This document shows, piece after piece, positions 6,134 to 59,805 of a DNA stretch of 64,000 nt. The DNA lies in NCBI GenBank assembly GCA_028534125.1, contig CM052851.1, forward strand, positions 49,662,001 through 49,726,000, given 5' to 3'. The translations under genes were made by a program, and so were the position numbers. A model generated the notes under the pieces. That model was not told the DNA's origin. It made no database searches and saw nothing but the letters and a program-made list of their open reading frames with translations. Every line of letters begins with the position of its first letter. The first letter of the stretch is position 1. The DNA comes from Lama glama (taxonomy: Eukaryota).

Positions 6134-6792
6134 GCTAAGCTAAGTATATTCAGTTTAGCAAGTAGCTGCCAGTGGAAACTTCTATATCCCTCCACACGCA
6201 GCCTTAGGCCCCTCCTGGGGATGACAAGGCCATTTTTTTTTTTTAAAGGAAAAATCTTGACAAACCATCTTGCAACAGACTCTGGTGCAGCCAACATAGA
6301 AATGGATAATCTCAGATGATGGCAATTGGAGCCATGAACAGTTTAATTTCATGATTAGGACACATATAAATATGTATATTCTGCCTTCTGAAACTAACAT
6401 ATATGATAAAATAGGCTTTGAATTCTGGGTTCTTGATTTTAGCTGTTTGTAGTTTATGATTATTGTTTCTGTTTTTATTAAAAGTTAATTTCTGTAAAGA
6501 AATATTATTCCTGCTCTCTCTTAGAAAATCTAATTCCTGGGATGAGGCTCGGTAATCAGTCTTCTACCACTATCTCAGTTTTCCTGAGGCATTCTCAAGA
6601 AAGAGTCACTGCCCAAACTGCTCTCTCTGCCTCCAAACTGTTCCATCACAGTCCACCCCCAACTCTGACAACAGAACAGCCCATCAAATCTAAATTCAAT
6701 CATATTAATCCTTCATTCAAACATTTTATTGTATTCTATACAGAATCAATTCAAAACACTTGTGATGGCTATCTGCAAAGCTCTACGGGTTT

Positions 6793-6794
<2 letters not shown>

Positions 6795-6830
<36 letters not shown>
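6795..6830. repeat. (GAT)12 microsatellite
   Basis: Perfect trinucleotide run; explains the poly-D in ORF 6729-6932. Confidence 0.95.
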
Positions 6831-7249
6831 ACAATCATTATCATTATGGTTAATTATGGTAGTACTAAGAGGAAGCCTAACACACAGGCATGTGTATTAA
6901 AAAAATTGTTGCCTCTTTGTTTGTTTAAATAGCAATGATAATAGATTGAGTGGTGATTAGGAAACCTGAAACTCAGAGAGAAAGGAAGTATCTAGATGTT
7001 ATATCTGTCTATCTGAATCTGCATTTGTTTCCCTGAAAAGTGTACTGACCCCAAAGTTGTGCCTATAATAATCACACACCACTTAGATAGATAGGGATAC
7101 ATCATATATTTTTATTATACAAGAAATATTTGAGTATATTATTAAAAAAAACAAATGACAGAAAGGTGTAGAGCTTCCTGAAAGGCTACTTGGAGCTTGG
7201 CCAATCACTCCACTCTTCTTAGAAGAAATAAGAATTAAGAGCGTCCTTA

Positions 7250-8130
7250 TGTATTTCCAGATTTTTTTAAATTCACGTGGGTAAACATATATGCTAGAAA
7301 TGTATTTGGCTTCCTGGGCATCAATTTTTTAAAATGTTTTTACATACAGGAAATCATGTCATTTTCTATTTCATTTCTTTAGTTAATATAATTGTGTGGG
7401 GGGGTATATTTTAGAAGGATATATACACACACACATATATATATACACATGTGTACCTTCACCTTTTAACACAAGGATAATATTTTATGGTGTGAAATAC
7501 CAAAAGCTATTTAACTGCTCTCTTACTGGTTGGATACTAAGACTGTTTCCAACTACTTAGCACTACACACAGTATTGTAATAAAAATCGTTTTACAGCTA
7601 TTTTTATTTACATTACACCTTTAAAAATATTTAAATTTCTTCCATATCTGTAGTGATGCCCCCTTTCTTATTCCCAATTTTATTTAAATTCTCTCTTACA
7701 CTCTTTCTCTCAGTCTCCCTTCCCTTTCTCTCTTTCGTTTTCTTTCAATACTTGAACTTAACAAAGATTCTCTGTTTCATCATTTATTTCAAAATACTAA
7801 TTTAAATCATAAATCAAATCTCCTTGCTTTTATTTTCTTTGTTTTTTTTTCCCCTAATACTTTGAGTTTGGAATTTCGTTATAATTTACCCTGTTTTCTT
7901 TCTAATAATTTCATTTAAGTCTGTATGCTTTTATTTGATTATTACCAAAAACATGTGTAGTGAGTTGATTGTTTTCCACTTTTAAATAGTTGGCAATTTC
8001 GGTTGTAGCTTTCTTTTAAAGTTTGTTTTGTACCCAATTATTGTGAAGGGTTTGGGAAGAAAAAAATAAAATTTGTTGATTTTTGTTTTTCTGGGCATTT
8101 TCTTATTGATTTCTAATGTTCTAAGCAAAA
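7250..8130 (-). mobile_element. Highly degraded L1ME-type fragments
   Basis: T-rich antisense L1 motifs (gactgtttccaact; atatctgtagtgatgccccctttcttattcc). Confidence 0.45.
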
Positions 8131-21485: not shown

Positions 21486-21623
21486 TTTTCTTTTTCTTTT
21501 TTTTTTCAGGCGGGGAGGCAATTAAGTTTTATTTTTTTATTTTTAGAGGAGGTATTGGGGATTGAACCCAGCATTTTGTGCATGCTAAGCATGTACTCTA
21601 CCACTTCAGTTATACCCTCCCCC
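21486..21623 (-). mobile_element. Vic-1-like camelid tRNA-derived SINE
   Basis: Minus strand GGGGAGGGTATAACTGAAGTGGTAGAGTACATGCTTAGCATGCACAAAATGCTGGGTTCAATCCCCAATACCTCC, with A/B boxes and an A-rich tail. Target-site duplication AGGAGAAA at 21477-21484 and 21625-21632. Confidence 0.85.
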
Positions 21624-55437: not shown

Positions 55438-56139
55438 CATTCTAAATTATAATCTCTGAGATTTCGGTGGTTGAGGAAGACTGGGATATACTCTTAAAAA
55501 TGCTATTTGTAAAGGGGTGGAGAATAGGACTGATTAGAGGGAGAAATTAAATTGGTATGCAGTTGCAACAGAGGCTTCAGCTGATTCTAGAGGAGCCTGG
55601 CTCTTTGTCTACCCCTCGTTGACCAGTCACTGGACTCAGCAGCCGCCAGAAAGCAGAGGTGAATTTGGGCAAAGCATCGCCCCACAGCAAACAGAAATTC
55701 CCAGGATACCAGCCCTCAGCCACCAACAATCCAGGAAGGTGGGAAAATGGGTGTCTTAGTCCCACAGGGAGATCTAGGTGGTGGGTCACAGTGTCTACTC
55801 TAGTCCACTTGTTTTCCTGCTTGGATCTACTTTCTTTATATAGTAAGTCCATCCCATACGGGAATAGTTTTTCCAGGGTCCTTATTGGTATTTTTTTCTG
55901 GGATCTACCTTAGAACTTTTCGTTTATCTTCCAATTCTTCTTCCAAGCACCTAAAGAACTAACAAAGCCATTTTTTACTGTTCAAGATTCCACACATCTT
56001 CTTATCTTGAGCCACTAGTCCTTCCAAACAAAGTGAACAAACAGGTATGTCACCAGCAGCGATTCTTGTAAGGATACTCATTGCTATCTTTCAGGGGTAC
56101 TCTTCATTGGAGCTATAGCGCAGTATTTTGGGCTTGCAC

Positions 56140-56482
56140 TCACATACTGAGATACCCCATTTGTGGAAAAATGTGCCCTCTTTCCTCCTCTGTGAGCTGG
56201 TCATAAGACACCCCACTCCATCCCCTAAGCAGCCATAGATGTAACAGGAGATAAACTGCATCTATCTGCTTTTGACCAAGTACCAACACATGACCTCTAC
56301 TCACTGAGGATCCTGTTATCCCCAATACTACCAGAAAGCCCAGATCTGTAATAGAATTTTCCATCATCGCCCTGCTTCTCAGTAATGCTGGTTCCTCTTT
56401 AATTAAGACATTCCTCATAGCTTTTGTAAATGGATTGTCCTCCAGGCTCTCCTTTGCTGTCTTCTGGCCTTATGTACCTATT
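56140..56482 (-). pseudogene. ERVL gag remnant; its upstream part lies at 57195-57550, beyond the inserted LTR
   Basis: EDNPFTKAMRNVLIKEEPALLRS...ITDLGFLVVLGITGSSVSRGHV resembles ERVL gag EDTPFTKAIRNxLVRGAPA...VTELGSL..MG.IG...RGQV. The far side has MLE, FIDIGA and YTPKE motifs. Confidence 0.7.
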
Positions 56483-57123
56483 TATTGCCAGGGATTATGT
56501 TCTTGCCTTGTTGCAAAAATAATTCAGGTTAGACACGGAGGTCAAGAAAGTAAAGTGAGGATTTATTAAGGGATAGACAGAACCCTTTCAAGGGGAGAGC
56601 GGGCAGGCTCAGGTGAGCCGCCGCAATCAGTTTCTTTGGCAAGCTGGTTACACAGGGTGTGAAAATAAATGGGCAGAATATTCATCGGGAGGAAGGGTTT
56701 GGGAGGAGTTGATTTCATCACAGCTCCATCTTCCCAAGGGGAGGAGGGATTTTTGTCCTTATTTAGTCTGGATTGGAAGTGTCATGGCGTCAGTGTACAA
56801 TGGGTACTTCTAATCTGCAAGGCTAACTGTATTGTAATGAGGGCATAATAGGCAAACGGTTACCTTCGGACATTGGAGATTCCAGCCTTTTTCCAGTTTT
56901 CTTCTTGGCTTCCAGGCCACTTGTCACCCCAAAGTGTGTGATTTCTTATCAGTTCAGAGGTTCCTGGTTTTTTCTGTCTGTCCAAGAACGCTTGAACTCT
57001 TGTTGTTTACACGATGTATAATTTCCTGTATTTCTCCTGTGCCCTCCTTTTTTAACCAATTTCTCACATTCGGCCTGTGTTCCCCTTTCTCTGCTCATAT
57101 CTAGCTATCTGCCTGCTCTAACA
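56483..57123 (-). mobile_element. ERV1-class solo LTR (MER50/MER83-like U3 start)
   Basis: Minus strand begins TGTTAGAGCAGGCAGATAGCTAGATATGAGCAG, has AATAAA ~80 nt before the end, and ends ...CAAGAACATAATCCCTGGCAATA. The U5 boundary could instead be 56498. Confidence 0.8.
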
Positions 57124-57125
57124 TT

Positions 57126-57192
57126 TGGCTCCCCATCTGGGAATTAAACCTCGGTCTCCCACTGACAGGGGAGCATACTCATCACTATACTA
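57126..57192 (-). pseudogene. tRNA-Asp(GTC) DNA copy with encoded CCA, lacking the first 7 nt
   Basis: TAGTATAGTGATGAGTATGCTCCCCTGTCAGTGGGAGACCGAGGTTTAATTCCCAGATGGGGAGCCA matches recalled mammalian tRNA-Asp-GTC at about 57/68 positions by hand; several changes look like CpG decay; the B-box is degraded. Confidence 0.9.
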
Positions 57193-59805
57193 TACAACTT
57201 TTCTAACATATTCATGCTAACATGTGCATGGCTCTGAGCCCGTTTGATCAGTTTTCCCGCCACCGTCTGTGATATTTCCAGCACTCCTACTTCACTTGCC
57301 TTTTCTCCGAGCTTCTAAGAGCATGCATATATAACTTCCTAGACCTATGACTATCTCTCCCAGGGTCCTTGTCAAGGTCTGTCATGATGGGGTGCTCCTA
57401 TATCAATAAATGTTTGTAGATAAGCTTTTCCTTATCTAAACTAATGTTTCATCCTCCCCAGGGCATCACATCCGCAGAATCCAGAGAGTCTCCTGGCTCA
57501 TGTTAATTAGACACTTGGGCTCTTTTGGTGTGTAATCACTTTCTTCCTGCAGAAAAAGCACTTCACTAGTCAGTTTATACTGTAATTTGATCCTAGTTGT
57601 TGGTTTGGCAGCTAGAAGGGGAGGCAGAGGTAAACCCTGACATTGAGTACCTGTTGTCCTGTAAGGTAAAGATTTCTACTCCATCCTCAAGCAATGAGAG
57701 ACCACTGCCTTTAATTGCAAGGGTTGGGCCACTTCTGCAGGCCCATAAGTTTCTGTGAAATGTGAAGGTGCAAGGTTTTCAAGCGGATCAACCCAGACGT
57801 TCTCATTCTAAATCTGAGTATCTCACTTCTCCCTATTCAAGGTCCTAACTGGCTTAGCTGATTTGCTGTGTATGAGAATTTAGCAATTTTTGTAGCTCTA
57901 TGACCCATTTAATTGAGTCCTGGACTGGATTCTTAACTTTTTTTCTGCCCTCCAGGCGTAGCAGATGAGAATCTTTTCATACACTGCCAAGGAGGTCCTC
58001 TGGCTTTGACAGTTTGCCTTTAATTGGTGATTAAAAATCTCCAGTCTTTCATTATCTTTTCCAATCCATCAATAGCACTCAGCAAGAGCCAGTCAACTGC
58101 ATAGAACTTATAATTGCTACTCCCTCCAACCTTCCAAAGGCCTGAGCTATCGTATCAGTCAGTGCATTTACCTTCCCTGAAATTCCATCCTGGTCTACCA
58201 CCAGAGGATTTTAACAACGCCAAGGGCTGTAAGTACTCCATCTATCGCTGCACTGCCAAATGCCAGGAGGGTGACCAACTCCAAAATCCCATGTGTGAGT
58301 CTGATTCCTAGGACCGTTTCAAATACCAATCATCCTAAATTACATTTCCCAGGAAACAGACTATTAGGGAGATATTTGTGTACAAAAGGTTTATTGGAGA
58401 GTGTTTGGGAAAATGCACCCGGATGGGAGATGCAGAAATAGTTTGGGCAGAGGGAGAAGTTGAACTAAAATGTAATTGTAACAGGTCCCTCCATATATTC
58501 CATGGGAACTCTTGAGCCTGGACAGCCCTTCAACGTTATCTTGAATTAAGGCAAGAAGGTCAGACCTTTGTATTTCCCTTAGCAACCAGTTAATCAATGT
58601 GGGCTTCCCCCAGGGAAAAGACATGACCTTAGTTGATATCATGCATTTCAGTTGAAGGCAAATCCCGGAGAAAGACTCAGATGTGAGTCTGTAGGACCCA
58701 CCACTCATGGCAGCCCACAATTAGGAAGGTGGAAAAATGCATCAATCAATGCCTCCATTCTTAAGAGTGGATCTAGGCAGCATATCACAGGATCCACTAT
58801 AGGAAACAATGAGATAGAAATCCTCTTCAGTACTTCAAATGAAGTTAACACAATATGGTAGAAAAATTATAGACTTCAGATGCACAAACACAAGTACATA
58901 CCCAATTTTCACTAAATTAACACTTTTGAAGTTTATCATCAAAGTAAGGAGATTATGTTTTAAAATAACTTTAATTCCATTTTTTTTATAATGTGATTGC
59001 ATTCTTCTAAACGTATTTACCAAACATGTAATGAGCACCTACTAGGCACTCGGCTAGGTCAGGAAGATTAAGGTGACCAGGCCCTAAACTTTGTTCTGAA
59101 AGAGTTTGTAGTTTCATATCCTATTTCCACATAACTAACCTCATGATGTAAATGTCAAACAGTCAAAAAACACATCCTTTCTTTTTTTTTTTGGAATCTT
59201 AAGGACTGACATTACATACTGTTAATATATTCCAACATACATATCTTCTTTCAGAAAACATACAGAAAATATTCCCACTATTTATTTTCAAGACATTAGA
59301 AAATAAATGGATGCATTGGAAAATTAGTATCATTTAAAAATCTGAATCTTAAAACAAAATAACAGGACAGGGAGTAAACAAGTTAGGTCTCCCATATCCT
59401 AGGTTTATTGCAAAGATCAGAAATATAAGTATAAGGCAGAGAAAAGATTCAGAAAAGCGGACAATAGTATGCTGTAATGATGTTTAAACTCTCTTTGACG
59501 TTCACATTTTTAACGTATTAGAAGAAGCGGTAATAACTACATTATATGCGTGAGATCTCTATTTGATAAGTGAAATGCTCATTCTATCATCCCCTGATAG
59601 ATTTTAAATACATTAAGGCAGAGATCATGTCTCTTTCATCCACTGCTGTGTCTCCGACATAGTACCTCTCACATCATAGGCTTCCACTACACACTTCATG
59701 AATAAAGGACATGTGGTGTATCAAAATCAAACAGAACAAGGAATCTTATGTTCTACATCAACTGTATTTTTGTTAAACCTTACGTCCCTGCAAATCAGTC
59801 TCATA

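Follow-up and report, generated by a model that had tools for sequence, protein, structure and literature searches.

A mature tRNA-Asp copy at the U3 end of a germline ERV1 LTR in Lama glama and its possible capture by retroviral reverse transcriptase

We found that a DNA copy of mature tRNA-Asp(GTC) lies at the U3 end of an ERV1 solo LTR within a 64,000-nucleotide stretch of the Lama glama genome (the window; all positions below are window positions unless a contig is given, and all features at the locus are read on the minus strand). The unit runs in the order target site duplication (TSD), U3 tip, tRNA-CCA, AA, whole LTR, TSD, and its ends are of the integrase type. The copy was made by reverse transcription. 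In the reading that we favor, with a probability of about one-half, a retroviral reverse transcriptase (RT) left the U3 end for a non-primer tRNA-Asp and returned to the U3 tip, after which the resulting DNA was integrated in the normal way. An earlier note on this DNA had also proposed tRNA capture during reverse transcription. That proposal remains the leading reading, but two independent insertions are now a serious rival to it.

RESULTS

The minus strand from 57192 to 57129 aligns with nt 8 to 72 of the genome's own tRNA-Asp(GTC); 54 of the 64 positions aligned are identical, and there is a single 1-nt gap. When the fragment was compared with 50 distinct tRNA genes taken from the genome, tRNA-Asp was the best match (E = 2.4e-14), and 6 of the 10 changes in the copy are at CpG sites. 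With its CCA (57128-57126), the copy occupies 57126..57192. It is followed by AA (57125-57124) and by the LTR (57123-56483). Thus, the tRNA-CCA-AA-LTR junction reported in the earlier note is real, and its observation that the locus has neither a poly(A) tail nor ERV1 internal sequence was confirmed. The 3' end of the copy is complete, and 3 to 7 nt are missing at its 5' end. CCA is added to tRNAs posttranscriptionally. We found no CCA next to any of the 9 gene-like Asp loci that we looked at, and we therefore infer that the template was a mature tRNA. Neither ARAGORN nor Rfam called the fragment as a tRNA, and the tRNA-side sequence was found nowhere else in the genome, so that it is single-copy. 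The copy has decayed neutrally, and both internal promoter boxes are changed. We concluded that it is a one-off that is probably functionless; no function was predicted and we saw no sign of one.

We next describe the boundaries of the unit. The left 4-bp TSD copy, AATA (57209..57212), matches the right copy (56479..56482) at 4/4 positions and is followed by TG. The TSD of the LTR family is likewise 4 bp. A TSD directly flanking the LTR alone, which the earlier note had set against its view of one insertion, was rejected, as these flanks match at only 2/4 positions. The unit lies in an older dispersed repeat, which DNA comparison with its paralogues showed to be co-linear across the insertion. 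The upstream flank (57213..58400, extent approximate) has 61 to 67% DNA matches to paralogues L078 and L083 and no Pfam match, and the downstream flank (55500..56478, extent approximate) has 67 to 69% matches to L078 and L082. This repeat may be ERVL-like gag, a name suggested by a motif; none of 7 host frames matched Pfam (0/7). When close host paralogues were sought with DNA and protein queries, only the locus itself was recovered. A search with the host motif gave 6 other matches. Of these, L080 proved not to be a paralogue, L084 duplicates L083, and L082 is deleted at the site, so that three served for the spacing comparison.

The spacing between two host landmarks was compared with that in three paralogues. 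The outer boundary at 57212-57209 leaves 6 nt between the landmarks, where the three paralogues have 7, an agreement within 1 nt. The left TSD proposed earlier (57191-94) overlaps the tRNA and would leave 24 nt in the same place. The true duplication lies 16 nt outside the insertion end given in the earlier note, and an 11-nt copy of the U3 tip lies between the two. The earlier host reading "MLEKLY" was not confirmed, and the boundary at 57212-57209 fits the paralogue spacing instead. The earlier idea of an unprocessed end mended by the host also fell, as this end is integrase-like, with the 4/4 duplication followed by TG; the anatomy of the locus gave no sign of host repair at either end of the unit.

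The extra copy of U3 nt 1 to 11 (57198..57208) starts with TG and matches 57123-57113 at 9 of 11 positions, the first 7 of which are identical. When 57208-57198 was compared with LTR nt 1 to 11, it was 1 such site in 127,970 window positions. By a rough likelihood model with rates measured on the window LTR, a copy of the LTR tip explains the 11-mer about 2,300-fold better than unrelated sequence does. It also explains it 545- to 672-fold better than a duplicate of the right-side host bases, a figure that should be taken as roughly a hundredfold, as the host prior comes from three paralogues. Between this 11-mer and the tRNA is a 5-nt linker (57193..57197). It may be tRNA nt 4 to 7 in which a CpG has changed and one base has been added, or it may be untemplated; the two readings score alike (8.9e-4 versus 9.8e-4), and LTR nt 12 to 16 scores 3e-6. 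We also tried a longer U3 repeat, of 19 nt and with TAG as its joint at the m1A9 position, and rejected it, since it scored about 300 times worse than the 11-nt reading. Viral sequence therefore borders the tRNA on both sides, with the U3 tip 5' and AA-U3 3', and the tRNA is in the viral plus sense.

The LTR itself (56483..57123) is a 641-bp solo LTR of the ERV1 (gamma-like) class, has the order U3-R-U5, and belongs to the short-U5 variant. It starts with TG, and the CA of the family end reads TA. The family has at least 2,724 candidate matches in the genome, and we examined two of its proviruses (L085 and L086). Provirus L086 has the order LTR, 4-nt spacer, primer site, gag, pol, env, purine run, LTR, with gamma-type domains (Gag_p30, RVT_1, RNase_H, MLVIN_C, and TLV_coat), and its LTRs are 77 to 78% identical to the window LTR. 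In L086, env and the purine tract lie toward the U3 end of the LTR, and the Arg primer site and gag lie toward its opposite end. This fixes the minus orientation of the window LTR and places the tRNA at the U3/polypurine tract position, as the earlier note had reasoned for a minus-oriented LTR. The poly(A) signal alone could not fix the orientation because AATAAA is present on both strands. The family primer site matches tRNA-Arg(ACG) at 15/15 positions (next best, 9/15), and Asp matches at 10/18. In both proviruses, a G run and 3 or 4 A lead into the 3' LTR. At the locus, the AA linker (57124..57125) makes three A before TG when the last base of the tRNA is counted, which equals a family 3' LTR junction with no change needed. 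The AA may be a remnant of the polypurine tract, or it may be what remains of a LINE-1 duplication or tail. We found no Asp-like piece in the two proviral interiors, in agreement with the earlier view that the insert is not ordinary internal sequence of the family.

For a survey of TSDs, 58 family copies were taken, and both ends were located in 40. We found flanks matching at 4/4 positions in 18, at 3/4 in 11, and at fewer in 11, the last group including two proviral 3' LTRs and some ends that are probably misplaced. The same 11 nt that begin the window LTR begin 33 of the 40. A search for a short-U5 provirus gave 10 matches, none with a primer site or an internal match, and the primer and polypurine tract of the short-U5 variant are taken from the long-U5 variant. 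The window LTR differs by 12.7% from the short-U5 column majority (15 other copies, 4 to 11%), and judged by this divergence it may therefore represent a sister subfamily of the short-U5 variant.

Several features of the family were noted in passing. In L085, a third LTR of the same family (6609-7266; G000:C37) lies between pol and env with 4-bp repeat flanks and is a solo LTR inserted in its own kind. Both proviruses have 4 nt between the LTR CA and the primer site (L086 at ~1300 and L085 at ~180); the usual spacer is 2 nt. The LTR of L018 is split by an insert of ~480 bp near nt 66 to 140, and L017, L040, and L062 each have two family LTR pieces within 3 kb. In the window, 21492-21618 on the minus strand is a 127-bp, 77% match to the env-side interior of L085, 35 kb from the tRNA-LTR unit.

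An assembly error is unlikely. Contigs from 4/4 sequencing runs, one of which may be the source sample, bridge the right junction. In 3/4 runs, a single contig spans 57098-57330; it crosses the tRNA-LTR joint but reaches just 26 letters into the LTR, less than the 31-letter bar of the tool. A second read check gave one variant, at 57176, in 1/4 runs, the other 3 having no cover there.

We also looked for further cases in the genome. Searching for a tRNA T-loop plus CCA before other copies of the LTR start gave 7 matches versus 13 in the control, and the locus alone was a tRNA. The genome-wide tRNA-CCA-AATG pattern gave 78 matches versus 19 in the control. Among the 26 that we examined, the only tRNA copy at an LTR was the locus, and there were also one SINE and one weak 33-nt match; the remaining 52 of the 78 were taken as SINEs by motif. 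Exact patterns thus found no second case in the LTR family or the genome; such patterns miss most decayed copies and bound the rate only loosely.

DISCUSSION

The anatomy of the junctions suggests that a viral RT likely made the copy during replication. According to this model, minus-strand synthesis would have reached the U3/polypurine tract boundary, at a template end or nick, after the terminal A run had been copied. RT would then have moved to the CCA end of a tRNA-Asp, where no more than a single A-T pair of homology was available, and copied this tRNA as far as nt 8 or nt 4, around the methylated A9. A switch back to the viral template at U3 nt 11 would have led to the tip being recopied, which would restore a TG-ended attachment site. 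Integrase would have inserted this DNA with a normal 4-bp duplication and, if a full provirus formed, LTR-LTR recombination would have left the solo unit.

Several findings argue for capture by RT: the minus orientation and U3 position, a family primer other than Asp, the 4/4 duplication followed by TG at the outer boundary, the 11-nt copy of the U3 tip, a tRNA that lies in the viral plus sense (the outcome expected of a template switch during minus-strand synthesis), an AA joint that needs no later change, the 3 to 7 nt missing at the 5' end, and decay that does not differ between tRNA and LTR. Against it, two template switches are needed, there is no microhomology for the return at nt 11, our searches found neither a precedent for the exact U3 layout nor a second case in the genome, and the repeat of 4 + 11 nt has the modal length of a LINE-1 duplication. 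Decay of the tRNA was compared with that of the LTR at non-CpG positions (4/51 versus 73/576; P = 0.38) and at CpG positions (6/13 versus 8/22; P = 0.72). This comparison has little power and rules out no more than a tRNA far younger than the LTR; of the two parts, the tRNA is if anything the less decayed. A9 of human tRNA-Asp is nearly fully m1A (PMC7293042), and m1A9 is a plausible stall, although only a suggestive one since the copy may run to nt 4. The literature consulted did not establish a low baseline of m1A58 in tRNA-Asp. Priming of the plus strand by the tRNA at the purine tract was considered and set aside; it would need a 3-nt bulge beside the 3' end, is weak, and is not separable from template switching.

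The earlier view of one insertion missed that the 4 + 11 nt also read as a LINE-1 target site duplication. It is for this reason that two insertions are a serious rival, even though capture still leads. According to this model, which we consider a close rival of lesser probability, a solo LTR with a 4-bp TSD came first, and LINE-1 later put a tailless mature tRNA-Asp at the left edge of the LTR with a 12- to 15-bp duplication. The weights that we give to capture and to this reading are judgements and were not computed. Consistently with a LINE-1 origin, 57212-57198 is repeated in the bases that follow the tRNA, over 15 bp and with 2 mismatches and a single gap. Fifteen base pairs is typical of LINE-1 target duplications, for which the mode is given as 14 to 16 bp (PMC2912911). 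The same repeat can alternatively be read as 12 bp at 10/12 with one extra A, and recopying by RT explains the repeat too. The nick would read TATT/CA, 2 off TTTT/AA. In two tailless Asp copies of the same genome, L127 and L128, it is 3 off, and their duplications are 14 and 12 bp. A CCA-ended Asp piece also exists within a SINE of the genome (L033), tailless tRNA copies are a known class (PMC5322556), and this reading accounts for the case being unique.

In contrast, the LINE-1 reading requires the nick to fall within ~4 nt of the LTR end. To mimic the AA junction, it also needs either a later loss of 1 to 2 nt from the linker or a 1- to 2-nt tail at a site 4 to 5 off the consensus. CCA-ended Asp copies are scarce (3 pattern matches, one of them chance-like). 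Known tailless copies are mostly 3'-truncated and 5'-complete, and the locus copy is the reverse. L127 and L128, which are clear Asp copies of the LINE-1 type, both begin at nt 1, whereas the locus copy is 3 to 7 nt short. Tailless retropseudogenes are expected to be flanked by a TSD of 8 to 35 nt with at least 70% identity, and for screening they are defined in PMC5322556 as 5'-complete and 3'-truncated; the locus copy, CCA-ended and short at the 5' end, does not have that form.

One-ended aberrant integration, the reading closest to that of the earlier note, is improbable in our judgement. In this scenario, RT added the tRNA to U3, integrase joined U5 only, and host repair joined the tRNA end with ~15 bp of host duplication or filler. 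A single template switch would suffice, 57212-57198 does resemble the host bases to the right of the LTR (11/15 with one gap), and there are known cases of aberrant ends accompanied by larger duplications of host DNA (PMC5041404). However, reported duplications are usually much longer, and the LTR tip accounts for the left 11-mer better than a duplicate of host bases does, by the roughly hundredfold ratio given above. We regard as very improbable a plus-oriented LTR with an overlong primer-binding site (PBS) made by primer read-through, or a segment of family internal sequence: the plus-strand joint does read CA-TT-TGG, and read-through inserts of 7 to 54 nt occur in HIV proviruses (PMC12657518), but L086 fixes the orientation, the primer is Arg(ACG) and not Asp, the insert lies at U3 and not U5, the two proviral interiors lack an Asp-like piece, and no other family member has a tRNA at its U3 end. 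For the long-U5 variant, the orientation and Arg(ACG) primer site of L086 refute the plus-orientation alternative raised earlier.

Both candidate mechanisms, capture by RT and LINE-1 retrocopying, are of kinds already known, and a U3 position with a rebuilt tip would be new. Our literature search, which most subscription journals lay outside, turned up no description of a non-primer mature tRNA at the U3 end of a germline ERV LTR. The variants of HIV-1 made by hairpin-induced tRNA-mediated recombination (HITME; Konstantinova 2006, via PMC12220202) resemble the locus in that non-primer tRNAs, including tRNA-Asp, were acquired by recombination at a near-equal length (63 nt of tRNA-Asp or 65 nt of tRNA-Glu). 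These arose in laboratory HIV with an engineered hairpin in nef, and the tRNA replaced deleted sequence and was later lost. The locus, in contrast, belongs to a germline ERV, and its tRNA lies at the U3 end together with a short duplication. An MLV 2-LTR circle (Colicelli and Goff 1986, via PMC12220202) and an HIV provirus (Gurgo and Franchini 2025, PMC12220202) carry, as at the locus, a near-complete mature non-primer tRNA with CCA at an LTR end. These are tRNA-Gly copies lacking 4 and 5 nt, respectively, at the 5' end. Unlike the locus, they abut U5 in the primer orientation, are described without a repeated LTR tip, and are somatic or unintegrated. The authors of the HIV tRNA-Gly report favor independent insertion (PMC12220202).

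Tailless LINE-1 tRNA retropseudogenes (Noll 2015, PMC5322556; Kojima 2010, PMC2912911) share with the locus the lack of an A tail and a direct repeat of 12 to 15 bp, and there are tRNA-Asp examples in the same genome. They are usually 5'-complete and 3'-truncated, whereas the locus copy is 3'-complete with CCA and 5'-short, and its repeat is imperfect at the 3' joint. In HIV-1, delayed second-strand transfer with primer read-through (PMC12657518) resembles the locus in that RT copies a mature tRNA past A58 into a provirus, but it involves the cognate primer at U5/PBS, and the locus has a non-cognate tRNA at U3. Helenus/TRIMp3 elements (Kojima 2024, PMC10886601) likewise have tRNA-derived sequence in the terminal repeat of an LTR element and a 4-bp TSD in animals. 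They are multicopy families with two LTRs, a PBS, and a polypurine tract, whereas the locus is a single decayed copy. SINE insertion has been proposed as the source of the tRNA-derived sequence in Helenus.

If capture by RT is true, an error described in cultured HIV and MLV also occurred in the mammalian germline, at U3 and with normal integration, and was fixed. It would also give LTR elements, such as Helenus, a route to gain tRNA sequence without a SINE. The signature to search for is a 4-bp TSD, a short U3 tip, tRNA-CCA, an A run, and TG. If the LINE-1 reading is true, the copy is an ordinary retrocopy at a coincidental place.

Other Asp-derived sequences in this genome take several forms. 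L127 and L128 are tailless retrocopies of nt 1 to 37 and 1 to 38 that end just past the anticodon, with 8 and 5 extra 5' bases that may be leader. L033 (G000:C12:48474648-48474665) is an 18- to 19-nt 3' Asp piece with CCA that starts at about T-loop A58 and sits between A-rich repeats in the A-rich middle of a tRNA-derived SINE; it may be a copy that stopped at m1A58 or a copy of a 3' tRNA fragment. L126 (G000:C2:80492338-80492407) is a decayed full-length Asp copy (85%) that lies ~20 nt upstream of a tRNA-derived SINE and lacks a clear duplication.
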